From IMG/VR virus record IMGVR_UViG_3300018483_000003, positions 1-6,609 of that record: a DNA stretch of 6,609 bases; one strand, written 5' to 3'. Position numbers and translations under genes: made by a program. Origin of the DNA: a virus. Lineage: Duplodnaviria > Heunggongvirae > Uroviricota > Caudoviricetes. Numbering within the stretch: position 1 is the stretch's first letter; each line of letters starts with the position of its first letter. Below the pieces are notes generated by a model. It had not been told where the DNA came from. It searched no databases and saw nothing but the letters and a program-made list of their open reading frames with translations. Below are positions 402 to 6,491 of the stretch, one piece after another.

Positions 402-511
402 ATCTCACCTCAAATAAGTGGTTTGCTGCCTAATTTCATTTTCTGGCGACCAACACAAGTCACACCCATTTCACTGCGTGGCTTGCTGTAATAAATTCGG
501 TTAGTTCAGAC

Positions 512-534
512 AATAAAAAACCCACCGAAGTGGG
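512..534 (-). terminator. Intrinsic terminator immediately after the 112-aa ORF
   Basis: Minus-strand transcript reads CCCAC-UUCG-GUGGG (plus 521-534), a 5-bp GC stem with a UUCG tetraloop, followed directly by UUUUUUAUUG (complement of plus 511-520). The hairpin abuts the TAG stop at 537-535. Confidence 0.6.
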
Positions 535-873
535 CTATGACCATTTTTTATTTGGATTTCGTTGGTGAGCATGATTAACAACTCTGTGCATTACATCCTC
601 ATATTTTTCATCTTCAATTTTTTCGACATCGCGAGGAAATGGTGTTGCTAATGCTTTGTCAACTTTATCCATTGGGTCTTCATTAATCTTATATTCAGGA
701 CCGTCATCTATAGCATTAAATCCAGGTGTTACACCGTTTTTTAATGCATATGCTATCCTCTTTTCCCATCTCGCTATTCTCCTCCTGTCTCGAGATGTAA
801 GACCTCTATCAGATACTTTTCTGTTTTGTCCGCGGTCAGGATTAACATAAATAGTCTTTTTCACCATAAGCAT
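535..873 (-). CDS. Hypothetical highly charged protein (112 aa from ATG 873; 114 aa if the TTG at 879 is used)
   Basis: ORF in the six-frame track. The ATG at 873-871 lies 2 nt after the N stop codon (TGA, 878-876), suggesting translational coupling; no strong SD. Product is rich in R/K/D/E and I recognise no family. AT-rich, and followed directly by a terminator. Confidence 0.55.
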   Translation of the reverse strand: MLMVKKTIYVNPDRGQNRKVSDRGLTSRDRRRIARWEKRIAYALKNGVTPGFNAIDDGPEYKINEDPMDKVDKALATPFPRDVEKIEDEKYEDVMHRVVNHAHQRNPNKKWS

Positions 874-875
874 AC

Positions 876-1181
876 TCAATAAGCACCGTACGGTAGTTTA
901 CTGTACAATTTTATTTTTTGGACTGCATGTATTTTGTTTCCTAATGGGTTTGAATCCTTGTAATAAATACTTCTATTTTTTCGAACGACTTCTTCTTTCT
1001 TCTTGCAGCAAAGGCTTCCTAGTGAAGCTGCTTTGTCTGCTCTGACGCAACCAGAGAGCTTTAGCGCAATTTTTCGCGCTAGTGCTTCATTACTGCGTCG
1101 CTCGGCAATAAGTTCTGCTCTGCGAGCTTTGTAGCGGCTTTTTGCCGTACCTTTGGATTCTTTCCAGACAATGGTTACCAT
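876..1181 (-). CDS. N: N-type transcription antitermination protein (phage-21-like arginine-rich motif)
   Basis: ATG at 1181-1179 with AAGGAG (complement of 1188-1193) 6 nt upstream. The N-terminus MVTIVWKESKGTAKSRYKARRAELIAERR contains the arginine-rich motif I recall for phage 21 N. The gene lies downstream of boxA/boxB elements and a pL-like promoter. The track ORF extends to 1211 but the longer start lacks an RBS. Confidence 0.8.
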   Translation of the reverse strand: MVTIVWKESKGTAKSRYKARRAELIAERRSNEALARKIALKLSGCVRADKAASLGSLCCKKKEEVVRKNRSIYYKDSNPLGNKIHAVQKIKLYSKLPYGAY

Positions 1182-1291
1182 GATGGTCTCCTTTAAGTGG
1201 CTTTGGCGCATGACGCGTCGAGGTGCTTATCTTCTCGATCGCTGTCTTGCAGCTGCAATTCGCGCCATCCCCAAAACCACTCAAGTTCTGG

Positions 1292-1331
1292 TCTCAACGG
1301 TTAGGTTGAGAGTCCGTTGATGTTAAAGAGC
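1292..1331 (-). promoter_or_regulatory. nutL: boxA (1323-1331) and boxB hairpin (1292-1311)
   Basis: Minus-strand RNA reads GCUCUUUAA (boxA consensus CGCUCUUUA), then UCUCAAC-CUAACC-GUUGAGA, a perfect 7-bp stem with a 6-nt loop. It sits in the N leader between the pL-like promoter and the N start. The same boxA and loop recur at nutR. Confidence 0.7.
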
Positions 1332-1373
1332 CTGCCAATCTGTTCCGTTTGGCTTCCAGCGTCCTGCTGATGG

Positions 1374-1407
1374 CTTAAATTTAAGACTTCTTAATTTATT
1401 GGTCAAG
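1374..1407 (-). promoter_or_regulatory. pL-like promoter with overlapping repressor operator (oL)
   Basis: Minus-strand -35 TTGACC (complement of 1401-1406), 17-bp spacer, -10 TAAATT (complement of 1378-1383). An 18-bp operator ATTTAAGACTTCTTAATT (1379-1396) overlaps the -10 and spacer and matches the oR sites. Confidence 0.55.
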
Positions 1408-1471
1408 TGCATTTTTGAAGAAAACTTAATTTTATGGGCGTGAATTTAGTTTGTCTTTGATTTTTAACGGG

Positions 1472-1497
1472 AAATAAAAAAGGGGCGAAAGCCCCTT
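1472..1497 (-). terminator. Intrinsic terminator overlapping the cI stop codon
   Basis: Stem 1480-1486 (AAGGGGC) pairs with 1491-1497 (GCCCCTT) around a GAAA loop. On the minus strand it is followed by UUUUUAUUU (complement of plus 1471-1479). It lies at the end of cI (stop 1498-1496) and would insulate pL/oL from pRM/pRE transcription. Confidence 0.65.
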
Positions 1498-2146
1498 AAG
1501 GAAGGTTTGCTAGCTTGGCATCAACGACAACGCCAATGATTTTACAGTTCCCATTGATTTCAATCATTGGGTATTGTGGATTGAGTGGTTTCAGGAATTT
1601 TCTACCGGCATCAATAACTAACTTTTTGAATGTCGCCTCGTTTTCTCCTTCAAGTTTGGCGACTACCAGCTTTCCATTACGTGGTTCGACTTCTGGGTCG
1701 ACGAGAATAATCATCCCCTCAGGAATACTCAGTCCTGCCGGGGCAGTCATTGAATCGCCTTTAACGTCGAGCCAAAAAGAGTCTTCAGAACAATCTACCG
1801 TTGTGTCGTACCAGTTATCTATTGCACGCCTATGATATGGCTCTACAGCTTCCATCCAACATCCTGCGCTTACCCAACTAATTAGAGGATACGAACCTCT
1901 TGGATCATGCCTGCTGTGATAGGCAATGTTTGAAAGACTATCCTCTCCTTTCAACAGGTAATCAGGGGAGCACTGCAAAGCCTTGGCTAAGGCCAATAGG
2001 TTTTCGCCATTGGGCTCAGTTTCAGATCGCTCCCATTGGGAAATAGCAACATTAGACACGCCAACCATCTTGCCAAGGGCAGCCTGCCTAATCTTGAGTT
2101 CTTTTCTGCGAGCGCGAATACGCTCACCCATCAGTTGTGTATTCAT
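1496..2146 (-). CDS. cI: CI-type prophage repressor (HTH_XRE N-terminal domain plus LexA/S24-like autocleavage domain; P22 C2-like)
   Basis: 216-aa ORF. HTH motif QAALGKMVGVSNVAISQWE; C-terminal domain with an Ala-Gly cleavage site (VSAGCW), catalytic Ser in GDSM and Lys in KLVVAK. Nearly identical, from memory, to the P22 C2 repressor. Divergent from cro across an operator region. Confidence 0.9.
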   Translation of the reverse strand: MNTQLMGERIRARRKELKIRQAALGKMVGVSNVAISQWERSETEPNGENLLALAKALQCSPDYLLKGEDSLSNIAYHSRHDPRGSYPLISWVSAGCWMEAVEPYHRRAIDNWYDTTVDCSEDSFWLDVKGDSMTAPAGLSIPEGMIILVDPEVEPRNGKLVVAKLEGENEATFKKLVIDAGRKFLKPLNPQYPMIEINGNCKIIGVVVDAKLANLP

Positions 2147-2212
2147 AGTTAAGACATCTTAAATAAACTTGACTTAAGATTCCTTTGGTGGATAATTTAA
2201 GTGTTCTTTAAT
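2147..2212. promoter_or_regulatory. oR region: three repressor operators with pR (rightward) and a pRM-like leftward promoter
   Basis: Three 18-bp sites of form A-TTAAG-N4-CTT-A-T: 2147-2164 AGTTAAGACATCTTAAAT, 2172-2189 ACTTAAGATTCCTTTGGT (weaker second half), and 2195-2212 ATTTAAGTGTTCTTTAAT. Centres are 25 and 23 bp apart. pR has -35 TTGACT (2169-2174) and -10 GATAAT (2191-2196), with cro ATG at 2227. The cI ATG at 2146 abuts the leftmost operator with no SD. Confidence 0.75.
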
Positions 2213-2226
2213 TTCGGAGCGAGTCT

Positions 2227-2412
2227 ATGTACAAAAAAGATGTTATTGACCACTTCGGAACCCAGCGTGCTGTTGCTAAAGCACTAGGCATTAGCGATGC
2301 AGCAGTCTCTCAGTGGAAAGAAGTTATCCCAGAGAAAGACGCCTATCGATTGGAAATCGTTACAGCTGGCGCCCTGAAGTATCAAGAAAGTGCTTACCGC
2401 CAAGCGGCATAA
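2227..2412 (+). CDS. cro: Cro repressor (61 aa, P22-Cro-like HTH protein)
   Basis: ATG at 2227 with GGAG (2216-2219) upstream. HTH motif QRAVAKALGISDAAVSQW. The sequence matches, from memory, P22 Cro almost exactly. First gene rightward of pR. Confidence 0.9.
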   Translation: MYKKDVIDHFGTQRAVAKALGISDAAVSQWKEVIPEKDAYRLEIVTAGALKYQESAYRQAA

Positions 2413-2419
2413 GCAAATT

Positions 2420-2459
2420 GCTCTTTAACAGTTCTGGCCTTTCACCTCTAACCGGGTGA
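2420..2459 (+). promoter_or_regulatory. nutR: boxA (2420-2428) and boxB hairpin (2442-2459)
   Basis: boxA GCTCTTTAA is identical to the nutL copy. boxB is UCACCU-CUAACC-GGGUGA, a 6-bp stem (one G-U pair) with the same CUAACC loop as nutL. It lies between the cro stop (2412) and cII. Confidence 0.7.
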
Positions 2460-2509
2460 GCAAACATCAGCGGCAAATCCATTGGGTGTGCCGCTATAAC
2501 TCAATATCA

Positions 2510-2550
2510 ATATAGGAAAATTAACAAATGGCACAAGCAAGCTACAGCAA
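2510..2550 (-). promoter_or_regulatory. pRE-like CII-activated promoter (TTGC-N6-TTGC motif inside the cII 5' end)
   Basis: Plus strand has GCAA(2537-2540)-N6-GCAA(2547-2550), which is TTGC-N6-TTGC on the minus strand, the CII tetramer site architecture of lambda pRE. A -10-like TATATT follows on the minus strand (about 2512-2517). The position overlapping the cII start matches lambda. Confidence 0.55.
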
Positions 2551-2824
2551 GCCAACACAGCGAGAAATTGATCGCGCTGAAACTGATTTACTCATCAACC
2601 TGTCAACGCTTACCCAGCGCGGTCTGGCAAAGATGATTGGCTGTCATGAATCGAAGATAAGCAGAACGGACTGGAGATTTATTGCTTCGGTTCTGTGTGC
2701 TTTCGGAATGGCATCAGACATCAGTCCGATTAGCAGGGCTTTTAAGTATGCGCTTGATGGACTCACAAAGAAAAAATCCCCGGCTGCCACCGAGGATTCT
2801 GAGCAAATTGATATGCAATTCTGA
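2528..2824 (+). CDS. cII: CII-like transcriptional activator (98 aa)
   Basis: Sits between nutR and the replication genes. The C-terminus KKKSPAATEDSEQIDMQF resembles the lambda CII C-terminus as I recall it (KKRPAATERSEQIQMEF). The central region is HTH-like and the pRE motif is embedded in its 5' end. Confidence 0.75.
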   Translation: MAQASYSKPTQREIDRAETDLLINLSTLTQRGLAKMIGCHESKISRTDWRFIASVLCAFGMASDISPISRAFKYALDGLTKKKSPAATEDSEQIDMQF

Positions 2825-2856
2825 GGTAATTACTGGATCAATCCACAGGAGTAATT

Positions 2857-3003
2857 ATGACAAAACAACTCAGTCCTTACCAGGACAAAATTCACAAACA
2901 CATACTACGTGATCGCTTCCTGTCCAGCTTCAAGCAGCCTGGTCGATTTCGGGCTGAGTTGGAAAAGGTGAAGCTGATGCAGAAGGAGAAAGGTCATGAG
3001 TAA
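2857..3003 (+). CDS. Possible small basic protein (48 aa) between cII and the O-like gene
   Basis: ATG at 2857 with GGAG (2848-2851) 5 nt upstream. Product [48 protein letters not shown]. Its stop (3001-3003) overlaps the O-like start (2996) as ATGAGTAA. Not in the supplied track because of its length. I recall an orf48 annotated at this position in P22, which if correct supports it. Confidence 0.4.
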
Positions 3004-3895
3004 CATATCTAATCTAGCCGAAGCCAGAGAGGCCAGAAGGCTACAACAACCGCATCAAAGCAGCGGTAAGGGGTATGCCTTGCTGCACCGTAAAATTATG
3101 GATGTGCCGTTTTACAAGGACGCAGAAGCAGCGCATCTGTGGGTTCACTTAATCCTCAAAGCAAAGCATACGCCTGAGTATGTAATGACTGACGCAGGAG
3201 AAATTCTGGTAGGCAGAGGGAAGCTACTTGGCGGTAGAAACTCTCTGGCGTTTGAAACAGGACTCAAACCAGATCGCGTTCAGTACCTGCTTAGAAAGTT
3301 CAAAAAACTCGGCATGATTGACTGGGTTTCACACGGTAAATTCTCAGTTTTCTCGGTAGAGAAATATGACGATTATCAGTCAAATTTTGTACCAGCAGAT
3401 TACCAGCAAATTACCACCTCAAAGCCAGCAATACCAATGCCTGCAAGCAATACTGTACCAGCAGATTACCAGCAAATTACCACAGATAAAGAATATAATA
3501 ATATTATCTCTAATACTGACGTATTAGAGAGTGCCACAGCAGACAAAAAGTCTGACAAGAAAAAACCTTCCGTTAGCTGTCAGGATGTTGTCGATGCTTA
3601 CCACGAAATCCTTCCTGAAGCGCCAAGAATCCGCGCACTGAATGACAAGCGTAAAAACCAGATCCGAACGTTCTGGCGCAAAGCCGGAGTGATAACCCGC
3701 CAGCTTGACGGGCATGGGTTCACGATGCAGGACTGGAGAAATTATTTGAGCTACGTAGGCGAAAATTGCCGATGGATGTTCGAAGAGCGCCCAAACCATC
3801 AACGCGGAACCGTCTGGCACAAAAAGGGATTTGATTTCCTGCTTAACGACAATACCTACCTGAAAGTTCGTGAGGGTGAACACGATGACCGATAA
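2996..3895 (+). CDS. Replication initiation protein (lambda O / P22 gp18 analogue) with DnaT-like C-terminal domain
   Basis: 299-aa ORF with AAGGAG (2983-2988) 7 nt upstream. It occupies the O position directly upstream of a DnaB-family helicase and contains internal iterons plus an AT-rich tract. The C-terminal region ([17 protein letters not shown]...WRKAGV) resembles DnaT/primosomal-type loader domains as far as I can recall. Confidence 0.8.
3389..3530. repeat. Iteron-like direct repeats plus AT-rich tract inside the O-like gene (putative ori)
   Basis: An identical 29-bp sequence GTACCAGCAGATTACCAGCAAATTACCAC occurs at 3389-3417 and 3455-3483. Each copy holds three TACCA(G/C) motifs at 11-bp phasing (3390, 3401, 3412 and 3456, 3467, 3478). 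An AT-rich tract follows at 3484-3530 (GATAAAGAATATAATAATATTATCTCTAATACTGACGTATTAGAG). Confidence 0.6.
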
Positions 3896-5321
3896 TTTTT
3901 ATGCGCCGCCCCATAGCATCGAGGCAGAGCAGGCGGTGATTGGTGGATTGCTTCTGGATGATGACAGCAGTGAGCGCGTCCAGAAAGTTCTGGCGATGCT
4001 GAAGCCTGATTCATTTTACGGCCGACCACACAAAATCCTTTTCGAAGAAATAACCAGAATGCACCGGGAGCAAAAGCCAGTAGATGGCCTGACGCTTTTC
4101 GATGAACTGGAGCGTAAATCGTTAACGGCGTCTGTTGGCGGTTTTGCTTATATCGCTGAGATCGCAAAAAACACGCCAAGCGCAGCAAACATCGTTGCCT
4201 ATGCAATGCAGGTTCGTGAAACCGCAATGGAACGCTACGCCATAAACCGCATGACTGAAGCGACGGAATTGCTCTATTCCCGCAACGGAATGACTGCAAC
4301 GCAGAAGTACGAAGCTATTCAGGCGATTTTCACGCAACTGACAGACCATGCAAAAACCGGATCGCGTCGCGGCCTTCGCTCATTTGGTGAGGTCATGGAA
4401 GACTGGGTTAGCGACCTTGAGAAGCGATTTGACCCGTCAGGCGAACAACGAGGAATGAGCACGGGGATCCCATCGCTGGACAGGATGCTGTCACCGAAAG
4501 GTCTGGTGAAAGGCTCTCTGTTTGTCATTGGCGCTCGCCCTAAGATGGGGAAAACGACGCTATACAGCCAGATGGCAATCAACTGTGCAGTGCATGAGAA
4601 AAAGCCTGCTCTGATGTTCAGCCTTGAAATGCCAGGTGACCAGATACTGGAAAAACTGGTAGGGCAGAAGTCAGGTGTTAACCCGAATATTTTTTACCTT
4701 CCGGCGACAAATGACGCTGATGACGGCTATCAGGGTGATTACGATGGTGACTTCAACAGGGCGATCGAAACAGCCAATCGCTTGAGTGAAATCGACATGC
4801 TTTACATCGACGACACGCCGGGATTATCTCTGGCTCAAATCGTCAGCGAAAGCCGTCGAATCAAGCGAGAAAAAGGATGTGTTGGCATGATTCTGGTCGA
4901 TTACCTGACACTAATGACCGCTGAAAAGGCCGATCGCAACGACCTTGCTTACGGCATGATCACCAAAGGACTGAAGAACCTTGCCAAAGAGCTTGATTGC
5001 GTTGTTGTGCTTCTGACGCAGCTTAACCGCGCATTGGAAAGCCGAACCAATAAACGCCCATTACCAAGTGACTCGCGAGATACAGGGCAGATTGAACAGG
5101 ATTGCGATTATTGGGTTGGGATCCATCGGGAAGGTGCTTTTGATGACAGCGTTCCTCCTGGTGAAACCGAACTAATCCTTCGCCTCAATCGTCATGGCAA
5201 TACCGGCACGGTGTATTGCATACAGGCAAATGGCGCTATTTATGACACAGACCAACAGTCTGCTGAAATGCGCCGCCGTGAACGCGAGGAACCGCAGTCC
5301 AAGAAGAAAGGAGGATTCTGA
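3885..5321 (+). CDS. DnaB-family replicative DNA helicase (478 aa)
   Basis: ATG at 3885 with GAGGGTG (3872-3878) upstream, overlapping the O-like stop by 11 nt. N-terminal DnaB signature PHSIEAEQAVIGGLLLD, Walker A GARPKMGKTT and Walker B-like MILVDYLTLM. GTG codons at 3870 and 3876 are possible alternative starts. Confidence 0.9.
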   Translation: MTDNFYAPPHSIEAEQAVIGGLLLDDDSSERVQKVLAMLKPDSFYGRPHKILFEEITRMHREQKPVDGLTLFDELERKSLTASVGGFAYIAEIAKNTPSAANIVAYAMQVRETAMERYAINRMTEATELLYSRNGMTATQKYEAIQAIFTQLTDHAKTGSRRGLRSFGEVMEDWVSDLEKRFDPSGEQRGMSTGIPSLDRMLSPKGLVKGSLFVIGARPKMGKTTLYSQMAINCAVHEKKPALMFSLEMPGDQILEKLVGQKSGVNPNIFYLPATNDADDGYQGDYDGDFNRAIETANRLSEIDMLYIDDTPGLSLAQIVSESRRIKREKGCVGMILVDYLTLMTAEKADRNDLAYGMITKGLKNLAKELDCVVVLLTQLNRALESRTNKRPLPSDSRDTGQIEQDCDYWVGIHREGAFDDSVPPGETELILRLNRHGNTGTVYCIQANGAIYDTDQQSAEMRRREREEPQSKKKGGF

Positions 5322-5349
5322 TGACCATCTACATCAGTGAGCTTGTAAC

Positions 5350-5381
5350 AGGCCTGCTGGTAATCGCAGGCCTTTTTATTT
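5350..5381 (+). terminator. Strong intrinsic terminator after the helicase gene (tR2-like position)
   Basis: Perfect 8-bp stem AGGCCTGC (5350-5357) pairing with GCAGGCCT (5366-5373), an 8-nt loop, then TTTTATTT (5374-5381). It sits between the helicase stop (5321) and the next ORF (5398). Confidence 0.7.
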
Positions 5382-5397
5382 GGGGGAGAGGGAAGTC

Positions 5398-5580
5398 ATG
5401 AATCTTGACGAGCAAGATGCACAAACTATTAGCTCATACATAAGGGCATCAAGACCAGATTACAAAGGTCCGGTATTCGTAGATTTATCTCGCCTTGAGG
5501 AGATTTACATGTGGGAAGCAAAGCTACGTACGCATCTTTTTATTCGTAAGATGACTAGCAACATTACAAAACCAATGTAA
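5398..5580 (+). CDS. Hypothetical protein (60 aa)
   Basis: ATG at 5398 preceded by purine-rich GGGAGAGGGAAG (5383-5394). The track ORF starts at an upstream TTG (5380). Product MNLDEQDAQTISSYIRASRPDYKGPVF...; no family recognised. Confidence 0.5.
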   Translation: MNLDEQDAQTISSYIRASRPDYKGPVFVDLSRLEEIYMWEAKLRTHLFIRKMTSNITKPM

Positions 5581-5594
5581 CTGGAGAGGTGAAT

Positions 5595-5810
5595 ATGAGC
5601 ACACTCGCAGACCTTATTCATGCCGATATGGCGGAAGATGGAGCAAGGCGTAATAGGTACTGGAAATCATCAAGCCTTCCAGTTTGTGAAAGATTCAACC
5701 ACAGGCCAAAACCAAAACGTAGCCGACGAGACAAAGTATTGAAAAAACTCATGCAAATTAACATGGCTGGTTTTGTCAGATTCGTGAGTGAAACGACTAA
5801 CGGGGATTGA
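5595..5810 (+). CDS. Hypothetical basic protein (71 aa)
   Basis: ATG at 5595 with GGAGAGG (5584-5590) upstream; GTG at 5589 is an alternative start. Contains a very basic segment RPKPKRSRRDKVLKK. The stop (5808-5810) is 1 nt before the next ORF's ATG. Confidence 0.5.
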   Translation: MSTLADLIHADMAEDGARRNRYWKSSSLPVCERFNHRPKPKRSRRDKVLKKLMQINMAGFVRFVSETTNGD

Positions 5811-5811
5811 T

Positions 5812-6078
5812 ATGGACGAATCAAGAAAGCAGTTTGAAGAATGGTTTGAAAATTACACCGGATGTGATCCTAAAAATAAAATATACGCCAATATGGTTGA
5901 GATGTATTGGCAAGCGTGGCAGGCATCGCGAGCAGCTATCGAGATTGAGTGTCCTGGAAAAAGAGAGCGTGAGGCATTTTCTACCGATTTCGAGGATGGG
6001 GTCACATTTGGTTATAACGACGCAATTAGTGAATGCGAAGGACGGATTCGCGCTGCTGGAGTCAAAGTGAAGGAGTGA
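5812..6078 (+). CDS. Hypothetical acidic protein (88 aa)
   Basis: ATG at 5812 directly after the previous stop; the track uses GTG at 5788. Product MDESRKQFEEWFENYTGCDPKNKIYANMVEMYWQAWQ...; Trp- and acid-rich. The stop is followed by the ninB RBS. Confidence 0.55.
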   Translation: MDESRKQFEEWFENYTGCDPKNKIYANMVEMYWQAWQASRAAIEIECPGKREREAFSTDFEDGVTFGYNDAISECEGRIRAAGVKVKE

Positions 6079-6080
6079 CG

Positions 6081-6491
6081 ATGAAGCAAACAATCTTCCT
6101 CCGAACTAAGCAACAACAGCAAGCCGCAATCAACGCCATCCTCGCAACACCACTCGATAAAGACAAGCCAGTCACCATCCGCATTACTGACTACAAGCGC
6201 AACCTTGACCAGAACGCAAAATTTCACGCGATGCTGGCGGATATCGCTCGTCAGGTTCAATGGTGCGATAAATGGCTAAAACCAGAACAATGGAAGGTTT
6301 TGTTGATCAGCGGTCATGCAGTGGCAACAAAACAGGAAGCTGATGTTTTGCCCGGCCTTGAAGGCGAATACGTCAACATTCGCGAAAGCAGCGCGCAGAT
6401 GAGTGTGAAGCGTATGGCAAGTCTAATTGAGTACACGACAGCATGGGCTATTGGTCAGGGTGTCAGATTTACCGACAGGAGGTACGAATGA
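6081..6491 (+). CDS. ninB: NinB (Orf-family recombination mediator, 136 aa)
   Basis: ATG at 6081 with AAGGAG (6070-6075) 5 nt upstream. Motifs [33 protein letters not shown] resemble lambda NinB/Orf as I recall it. The track's upstream extension (6033) overlaps the preceding gene and lacks an RBS. Confidence 0.85.

Follow-up and report, generated by a model that had tools for sequence, protein, structure and literature searches.

The early control region of a 6.6-kb tailed phage sequence is very probably the native imm21 region of coliphage 21, flanked by HK022-type modules

The window, that is, the whole stretch of 6,609 nucleotides that was analysed, most probably carries at positions 959-2864 the native imm21 immunity and early-control region of coliphage 21, in a wild HK022/HK97-like Escherichia coli phage or prophage close to mEp235 and Kapi1. 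We put the probability of this reading at about 95%. The core of the region resembles that of the Salmonella phage P22, and the combination of a P22-like core with a non-P22 N and boxB is the arrangement of phage 21 itself. The imm21 region has long been known, and everything described here occurs in annotated phages and in hundreds of E. coli prophages.

Relationship to phage 21, mEp235 and Kapi1

The blastn searches were run separately for each reference locus, and identity along the window was taken from pairwise global alignments. With phage 21 (OL657228), a late-1950s isolate from the sewage of Paris according to its GenBank record, blastn returned 959-2864 as one collinear block of 97.9% identity. 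The global alignment revealed six differences within 1036-2760 (identity of at least 99.6%) and none within 1319-2516. Furthermore, the OL1-3, OR1-3, nutL, nutR, boxA, pL start, terminator and pRE annotated in phage 21 all transfer to the window at a fixed offset of 4042. The segments collinear with phage 21 (OL657228), lambda imm21 and DE3 are the 5′ part of N, nutL, pL with OL1-3, the terminator and cI, together with OR1-3 and pR, cro, nutR, the tR1 region and most of cII. The window differs from phage 21 in that its N ends in another set of about 27 C-terminal residues, nun is present downstream of N, and the last cII residues and the whole replication module are distinct.

The mEp235 genome (JQ182731) is collinear with the window over 409-5390 at 98.8% identity but lacks the counterparts of 1-408 and of about 5391-6045, and vB_EcoP_Kapi1 (MT813197) departs from the window after about 2820. 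The chimeric N and nun are present in both phages. Cro and the repressor are annotated in both, whereas N and Nun are named as such in mEp235 and appear as hypothetical proteins in Kapi1. Over 870-2470, the identity to mEp235 and Kapi1 is uniformly 99.5-99.6% across 100% of the length, a uniformity that the earlier note had itself named as contradicting its proposal of a phage 21 x P22 mosaic, and the mosaic is given up here. The alternative raised in the same note, namely, a native phage-21-like immunity region, is taken as the correct one, in agreement with the collinearity of 959-2864 with phage 21 and with the identity of the cI and Cro proteins. With regard to distribution, 438 of the 5,426 complete E. 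coli genomes contain the 1036-2520 block at a coverage of at least 80%. High identity over all 6.6 kb was not seen for any record in the collections searched, in which coverage of the window peaked at 81-84%.

A laboratory origin, in which the imm21 segment would have been engineered or laboratory-crossed as in a lambda imm21 hybrid or the DE3 prophage of BL21(DE3), draws on the match of DE3, lambda imm21 and lambda h434 imm21 to 959-2470 at 98.7-98.8%; for 870-2470, the lambda imm21 hybrids and DE3 reach the same values over 94% of the length. However, the lambda imm21/DE3 match ends at 959, beyond which the window has nun and an N 3′ end of the HK022 type, and on the right side, where phage 21 has lambda-type O/P, the window encodes an HK022-type O and a DnaB-type helicase. 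Neither lambda-type O/P nor lambda-type sequence left of N is present in the window, and closer and longer matches are given by the wild phages mEp235 and Kapi1 and by natural isolates such as E. coli HS. A laboratory origin was dropped because the flanks are HK022-type and not lambda-type, and its probability is close to nil.

Repressor, Cro and operators, and their kinship to P22

The immunity core comprises the following features:

1496-2146, minus strand: cI repressor, 216 aa, with an N-terminal HTH_3 and a C-terminal Peptidase_S24 domain
2227-2412, plus strand: cro, 61 aa (Pfam P22_Cro, E = 5.7e-28)
1379-1396, 1414-1431 and 1443-1460: left operators OL1, OL2 and OL3, from the pattern search and phage 21 protein_bind features
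2147-2164, 2172-2189 and 2195-2212: right operators OR3, OR2 and OR1, from the pattern search and phage 21 annotation
1378-1406, minus strand: pL promoter, with -35 TTGACC at 1401-1406 and -10 TAAATT at 1378-1383 (consensus scan)
2169-2174 and 2191-2196: -35 (TTGACT) and -10 (GATAAT) of the pR promoter, overlapped by the right operators
1480-1497, minus strand: intrinsic terminator hairpin directly past the cI stop codon, with the phage 21 terminator annotated at the matching place

The cI protein is identical to the full-length phage 21 ORF in 216 of 216 residues, and Cro to phage 21 Cro in 61 of 61. Both are also close to their P22 counterparts, as the earlier note had stated, with 202 of 216 residues shared between cI and C2 (93.5%) and 60 of 61 between the two Cro proteins (98.4%). 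The Pfam matches of cI (HTH_3, E = 6.4e-17; Peptidase_S24, E = 1.2e-30) are accompanied by PDB matches to the P22 C2 structures 1ADR and 2R1J. Its sequence shows the motifs GDSM and FKKL, matching the Ser and Lys catalytic residues of this type, and the Ala-Gly of SAGCW as candidate cleavage site. By its domains and motifs, cI is a LexA-like (S24) repressor, predicted to be self-cleaving.

The operators fit the P22-type 18-bp pattern that the earlier note had described. With up to two mismatches allowed, ANTTAAGNNNNCTTNANT gave 12 strand-matches compared with 2.6 ± 1.7 in shuffled sequences, none of the 200 shuffles reaching 12, and the matches are confined to the two intergenic control regions (OL1, OL2, OR3, OR2 and OR1); OL3 is degenerate. 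OL1 and OR1 match P22 base for base, OR3 differs at one base and OR2 at two, and the 80-bp region between cI and cro holds four differences from P22 in all (95% identity). The pL transcription start annotated in phage 21 maps to 1371.

At the DNA level, P22 is alignable only over 1319-2430, from boxA-L to boxA-R, at 83.5% identity (blastn), and the coding DNA of this segment is 81-90% identical. At the left edge, the boxA block 1321-1331 is conserved, 1332-1342 is unalignable and the homology is continuous from 1343; at the right edge, it is continuous to about 2417, with boxA-R conserved to 2430 and the sequence unalignable from boxB onward. P22 immC shares with the window the gene order, the identical OL1 and OR1 and the conservation of boxA on both sides, but its N counterpart gp24 is 21% identical, its boxB is unrelated, c1 and cII are 23% identical and the other flanking genes differ. 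Between cI and P22 c2, 123 of 651 nucleotides differ; third codon positions account for 100 of these, and the codon differences comprise 96 synonymous and 14 nonsynonymous ones; residues 17-53, including the HTH, are unchanged. Because nearly all of the differences are synonymous, the divergence of P22 and the window is old, and the core from boxA-L to boxA-R is, as aligned, an old homologue of P22 immC.

The edges of the P22 homology lie close to 1332-1373 and 2413-2419, where the earlier note had placed recombination junctions. Together with flanks that are unalignable with P22 and with the high protein identities to C2 and Cro, they would suit a recent recombination that had linked a P22-type C2/Cro/operator module with a phage-21-type N and nut near these positions. 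Nevertheless, the whole interval with these same junctions is found in phage 21 itself, with no differences over 1319-2516, and near-identity to P22 DNA within the module is absent, the 83.5% identity and the overwhelmingly synonymous changes pointing to a long separate descent. Any exchange behind the difference between phages 21 and P22 is older than phage 21 and not a feature of this window. Such a recombinant is highly improbable: the positions mark nearby edges of P22 homology but not junctions of a 21 x P22 recombinant, and, by these comparisons, no P22 DNA has recently recombined into the window.

In the native imm21 region, the conservation of the recognition helix and of the key operators relative to P22 argues that the repressor/operator specificity is probably the same as that of P22. 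A cross-specificity of the phage 21 and P22 repressors was reportedly described by Poteete et al. in 1980, and comparisons of the operator and nut sequences of the two phages are said to be contained in papers of 1980 (Poteete et al.) and 1985 (Franklin).

N and the nut sites

The antitermination elements are as follows:

876-1181, minus strand: N antiterminator, 101 aa, chimeric by sequence comparison with phage 21 and HK022
1292-1311, minus strand: nutL boxB hairpin, with a 7-bp stem UCUCAAC/GUUGAGA and loop CUAACC; the annotated phage 21 stem-loop maps here
2442-2459, plus strand: nutR boxB hairpin, with loop CUAACC and a 7-bp stem; the annotated phage 21 stem-loop maps here
1321-1331, minus strand: boxA-L (GCTCTTTAAC on the transcript strand), annotated in phage 21 at 1324-1331; left edge of the P22 homology
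2420-2430, plus strand: boxA-R (TGCTCTTTAACA region); right edge of the P22 homology

N and both boxB hairpins had been described as phage-21-type. This was borne out for the two boxB sites, which show no base differences from phage 21, and for the arginine-rich motif of N, since residues 8-29 are identical (22/22) to the phi21 N peptide of PDB 1NYB. For N as a whole, it applies only to the 5′ two-thirds of the gene and not to the last 27 codons or so (876-958). Segment by segment, the gene agrees with phage 21 at every base of 1036-1181 and at about 80% of positions in 959-1035, and its HK022-linked 3′ end occupies 876-958. The protein follows phage 21 N residue for residue up to position 57 and loses this identity from about residue 58; the full-length value of 75.5% includes about 27 C-terminal residues of another type, so that the two proteins are not colinear throughout. 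With an N that is only 75.5% identical, the region represents the phage 21 immunity and nut sites with a variant N, and not a complete copy. The Pfam N_peptide match to N is weak and below the cut-off.

The stem sequences of the nutL and nutR boxB differ from each other, and the CUAACC loop is common to both. Structure prediction at the nutL boxB pairs CAACGG with CCGUUG and not the 7-bp stem, which was read directly from the sequence. An Rfam scan (E <= 1) returned as its sole match a chance snoRNA of 18 bits, which places the nut sites outside any curated family. Judged from their sequences, N and boxB belong to a specificity class different from that of P22 gp24. In the diverged E. coli phages N7, JEP4, CUS-3, Gally and IME10, N, repressor and cro were matched together at 83-88%. 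The pairing of this immunity type with an N of the phage 21 kind is therefore old and common and not a one-off.

The nun cassette and the displaced N 3′ end

To the left of the phage-21-type part of N, two further features were recognised:

535-873, minus strand: nun, homologue of the HK022 Nun transcription-arrest (exclusion) protein, directly downstream of N in the pL operon
410-502, minus strand: displaced non-coding relic of a phage-21-type N 3′ end, translating as TNRIYYSKPRSEMGVTCVGRQKMKLGSKPLI and a stop

Nun is identical to HK022 Nun in 109 of 110 residues, and 518-993 is 96.4% identical to HK022. The relic shows 95.6% identity to phage 21 DNA at the 3′ end of N and downstream of it, and its translation matches 30 of 31 residues of the phage 21 N C-terminus. 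HK022 itself lacks the N 5′ part, nut21 and imm21 of the window and has a cI and cro of its own in their place; it is devoid of a full-length N and retains an N 3′-end-like sequence alone, upstream of nun. As these alignments place it, a local junction relative to phage 21 lies inside N, at about 959-1035, with an HK022-type cassette (503-958) providing a new N 3′ end and nun, and the phage 21 N 3′ end evidently survives as a dead copy at 410-502. This anatomy of the N/nun junction is the sole part of the arrangement that may be undocumented. A consensus scan of the minus strand over 876-1000 found no sigma-70 promoter for nun within the N 3′ end; nun promoters were reportedly dealt with by King et al. 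in 2000.

One way to account for this anatomy is that nun and an N 3′ end of its own move together as a cassette of 456 bp (503-958), which took the place of the C-terminal portion in a 21-type N and left the original 3′ end behind as the relic (410-502). We consider this unlikely; if true, it would suggest that diverged N 3′ ends act as homology arms moving nun between lambdoid phages, and the C-terminal part of N would be swappable without a change of nut specificity. The reverse polarity, in which N (with the alternative 3′ end), nun and the 21-type N 3′ end formed the ancestral order and phage 21 lost nun by recombination between the diverged N 3′ ends, is a possible though doubtful reading. 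It is consistent with the recognisable homology of the two N 3′ ends (IYY...QKIKL..SK), with the presence of TGTAATAAAT at both edges of the 456-bp difference and with the fact that many phages and 214 E. coli genomes share the N-nun arrangement. However, identity to phage 21 drops to about 80% in 959-1035, between flanks of 95-100%, so that a one-step deletion from a window-like ancestor does not give phage 21.

cII and the replication module

The right side of the imm21 region contains two annotated elements:

2528-2824, plus strand: cII activator (Pfam Phage_CII, E = 8.6e-35)
2537-2550, minus strand: CII site (pRE), TTGC-N6-TTGC, from phage 21 annotation

The cII gene product is 92.9% identical to that of phage 21. 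Homology to HK022 sets in again near 2522, and that to phage 21 tapers off across 2760-2864; over 2522-5352, which includes cII, DUF2740, O and the helicase, HK022 and the window are 97.8% identical. The alignments thereby place a second local junction relative to phage 21 around cII (2522-2864), with an HK022-type O and a DnaB-type helicase in place of lambda-type O/P.

Proposed switch and implications

By homology with lambda, P22 and phage 21, the window would harbour a lambda-type genetic switch, in which the LexA-like cI and Cro compete for the three pR/pRM operators and for the three at pL. The pL and pR transcripts would bear nutL and nutR, each composed of boxA and a CUAACC-loop boxB, and the arginine-rich motif of N, encoded by the first gene of the pL operon, would bind these sites to render RNA polymerase resistant to termination; cII would next activate pRE.

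The main use of the present analysis lies in correct annotation, the label imm21-type applying to cI, cro, OL/OR, nutL/nutR and the 21-type arginine-rich motif of N. Such a region predicts homoimmunity with phage 21, lambda imm21 and DE3. The likeness to P22 is textbook lambdoid modular evolution, with an immunity core bounded by conserved boxA common to a coliphage and a Salmonella phage, and with N and boxB co-varying as a separate specificity unit. The adjoining nun suggests that a prophage of this type would, as a prediction, exclude lambda too.

Gene Content and Layout of the Window

An ORF map combined with family scans over the window revealed a standard lambdoid early region; promoters and the terminator come from a consensus scan.

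Genes and control sites (coordinates, strand, feature)
99-401, -, 100-aa ORF without family match
535-873, -, Nun homologue
876-1181, -, N
1292-1311, -, nutL boxB hairpin, coinciding with the nutL stem-loop annotated in phage 21
1406-1378, -, pL
1497-1480, -, terminator directly after cI
1496-2146, -, LexA-like repressor (cI), domains HTH_3 and Peptidase_S24
2169-2196, +, pR
2227-2412, +, Cro, P22_Cro family
2442-2459, +, nutR boxB hairpin, coinciding with the annotated phage 21 nutR stem-loop
2528-2824, +, Phage_CII protein (cII)
2857-3003, +, DUF2740 ORF
2996-3895, +, O-like initiator
about 3885-5321, +, DnaB-type helicase
5398-5580, 5595-5810, 5812-6078, +, small ORFs between helicase and NinB
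6081-6491, +, NinB

The C-terminal half of the 99-401 ORF, which lacks a Pfam match, is hydrophobic, and a short conserved stretch spanning its ribosome-binding site and start (390-426) also occurs in phage 21 and P22.

Identity to Phage 21

The earlier note proposed a mosaic of phage-21-type N and nut sites with P22-type repressor, Cro and operators, and offered a native phage-21-like arrangement as the alternative. The mosaic reading is contradicted by the uniform identity of 870-2470 to single phages, megablast giving 100% coverage at 99.6% to Kapi1 and 99.5% to mEp235; phage 21, lambda imm21, lambda h434 imm21 and DE3 cover 94% of the interval at 98.7-98.8%. It is the alternative that is borne out: 959-2864 forms one collinear block with the phage 21 genome (OL657228, published in 2022; PMC9119081), pairwise alignment reveals no difference in 1319-2516 and only six in 1036-2760, and the phage 21 cI and Cro proteins are 100% identical to those of the window. 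Moreover, phage 21 annotations transfer at a constant offset, which places OL1-3, OR1-3, boxA-L, boxA-R, nutL, nutR, the pL start, the terminator, pRE and the CII site. Judged by this uniform identity to phage 21, mEp235 and Kapi1, the window carries the native imm21 region, the immunity region of coliphage 21. The features that the note lists are all present, but they make up the classical, fully annotated imm21 region, and to call it a mosaic is right only in the broad sense, long recognised, in which modules are shared among lambdoid phages.

With regard to the OL657228 record, the repressor (locus 5538-6110) is annotated as 190 aa from an internal Met start, as against 1496-2146 in the window; despite this shorter start, phage 21 has the full 216-codon cI ORF uninterrupted and colinear with P22 C2. 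The record names its three right operators OR2, OR2 and OR3, and the double OR2 looks like an annotation slip.

The 1036-2520 block is covered to at least 80% in 438 of 5,426 complete E. coli genomes, and in 120 records the best match, whether full-length or partial, reaches 99% identity or more.

Nature of the P22 Resemblance

The likeness to P22 noticed earlier is itself genuine. The repressor shares 202 of 216 residues with P22 C2, and Cro 60 of 61 with its P22 counterpart. The 18-bp operator pattern ANTTAAGNNNNCTTNANT, with at most two mismatches, gave 12 strand-matches, all confined to the two control regions, compared with 2.6 ± 1.7 in shuffled sequences; OL1 (1379-1396) and OR1 (2195-2212) are the same as in P22 at every base, OR3 differs by one base and OR2 by two. 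Both boxB hairpins, taken to be of phage 21 type, are so, with a common CUAACC loop and different stem sequences. The P22 alignment is restricted to 1319-2430 (83.5% identity), and its edges lie close to the junctions that had been guessed: on the left, boxA-L (1321-1331) is followed by a gap (1332-1342) and unbroken homology from 1343, and on the right, homology continues past the stop codon of cro and through boxA-R, as far as 2430, and is lost at boxB.

A recent exchange with P22 was rejected on this low identity and on the pattern of changes. The two cI genes differ at 123 of 651 nucleotides, with third codon positions accounting for 100 of these; the codon differences are 96 synonymous and 14 nonsynonymous (16 and 1 in cro). 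Control DNA is more conserved than coding DNA, with 4 differences over the 80 bp between cI and cro and 5 over the 86 bp of pL/OL1-OL2, and the HTH-containing repressor residues 17-53 are unchanged. Together, the excess of synonymous changes, the conserved control DNA and the unchanged HTH point to long divergence under purifying selection, with operator specificity probably retained. Furthermore, N, repressor and cro are matched together at 83-88% in the diverged E. coli phages N7, JEP4, CUS-3, Gally and IME10, so that a 21-like N combined with this type of immunity is an old and common arrangement. Poteete, Ptashne, Ballivet and Eisen in 1980 (J Mol Biol 137:81) and Franklin in 1985 (J Mol Biol 181:75) reportedly already compared phages 21 and P22 in their operator and nut sequences.

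Junctions with the HK022-Like Backbone

The left end of phage 21 homology falls inside N, and the assignment of this gene to the phage 21 type stands for one part only: residues 8-29 agree at every position with the phi21 N peptide whose structure was determined with boxB RNA (PDB 1NYB), and 1036-1181 is identical to phage 21, whereas identity falls to about 80% over 959-1035 and 876-958 is unrelated in detail. Segment 518-993, covering nun and the 3′ end of the N ORF, is 96.4% identical to HK022, a coliphage with the Nun exclusion protein, in which nun is preceded by N-3′-like sequence but a full-length N is missing. The genuine 3′ end of phage 21 N, with the sequence downstream of it, is matched at 95.6% identity by 390-502, and the displaced copy at 410-502 (-) still reads TNRIYYSKPRSEMGVTCVGRQKMKLGSKPLI*, 30 of its 31 residues matching the phage 21 N C-terminus. 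Two diverged N 3′ ends are present, the HK022-linked one in use (876-958, -) and a relic downstream of nun (410-502, -). Compared with phage 21, the window has a 456-bp cassette (503-958) inside N, carrying the alternative 3′ end and nun, and both edges of this difference bear TGTAATAAAT (487-496 and 959-968). The N-nun junction (400-1100) is covered to at least 80% in 214 complete E. coli genomes and also occurs in phages mEp235, Kapi1, mEpX1, PA28 and many Stx1a-converting phages; several of these phage records already carry N-like and Nun-like labels.

To the right, homology to HK022 sets in again at ~2522, just ahead of the cII start, and extends to 5352 at 97.8%, while that to phage 21 fades over the cII C-terminus (2760-2864). 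Beyond cII, where phage 21 has lambda-type O/P, the window carries an O of HK022 type and a DnaB-type helicase. From these alignments, the window appears as an HK022/HK97-like backbone holding one block composed of the 5′ part of N(21), nutL, imm21 and nutR. Segment 5391-6045 (+), with the small ORFs, is missing from mEp235 and patchily shared with HK022, and is one more patch of local mosaicism, in the nin region.

The O-like gene contains, within 3383-3483 (+), two 35-bp direct repeats, AAT(T/A)(T/C)TGTACCAGCAGATTACCAGCAAATTACCAC, 94% identical and 66 bp apart; they contain ATTACCAGCA sub-repeats and encode a repeated 10-letter peptide. By analogy with lambda O, they probably represent iterons of an origin located within the initiator gene.

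Proposed Regulation and the Place of Nun

On the model established for lambda, P22 and phage 21, cI dimers on OR and OL would repress pR and pL and regulate pRM, and prophage induction would proceed via RecA-stimulated self-cleavage of the cI S24 domain. For lytic commitment, Cro would occupy the same operators as cI. N, produced from pL, would contact boxB(21) through its arginine-rich motif and, with boxA and Nus factors, allow RNA polymerase to read through tL and tR1; cII would then switch on pRE at the TTGC-N6-TTGC site (2537-2550).

The Nun copy (535-873, -), identical to HK022 Nun at 109 of 110 residues, lies immediately downstream of the functional-looking N gene. Recognising lambda boxB through an arginine-rich motif of its own, HK022 Nun arrests transcription on lambda DNA (PMC5386594). 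With Nun next to N, the element would possess both an antiterminator for its own nut21 and a lambda-directed transcription-arrest protein and, since its boxB differs from that of lambda, Nun is expected to leave the N system of the phage itself undisturbed.
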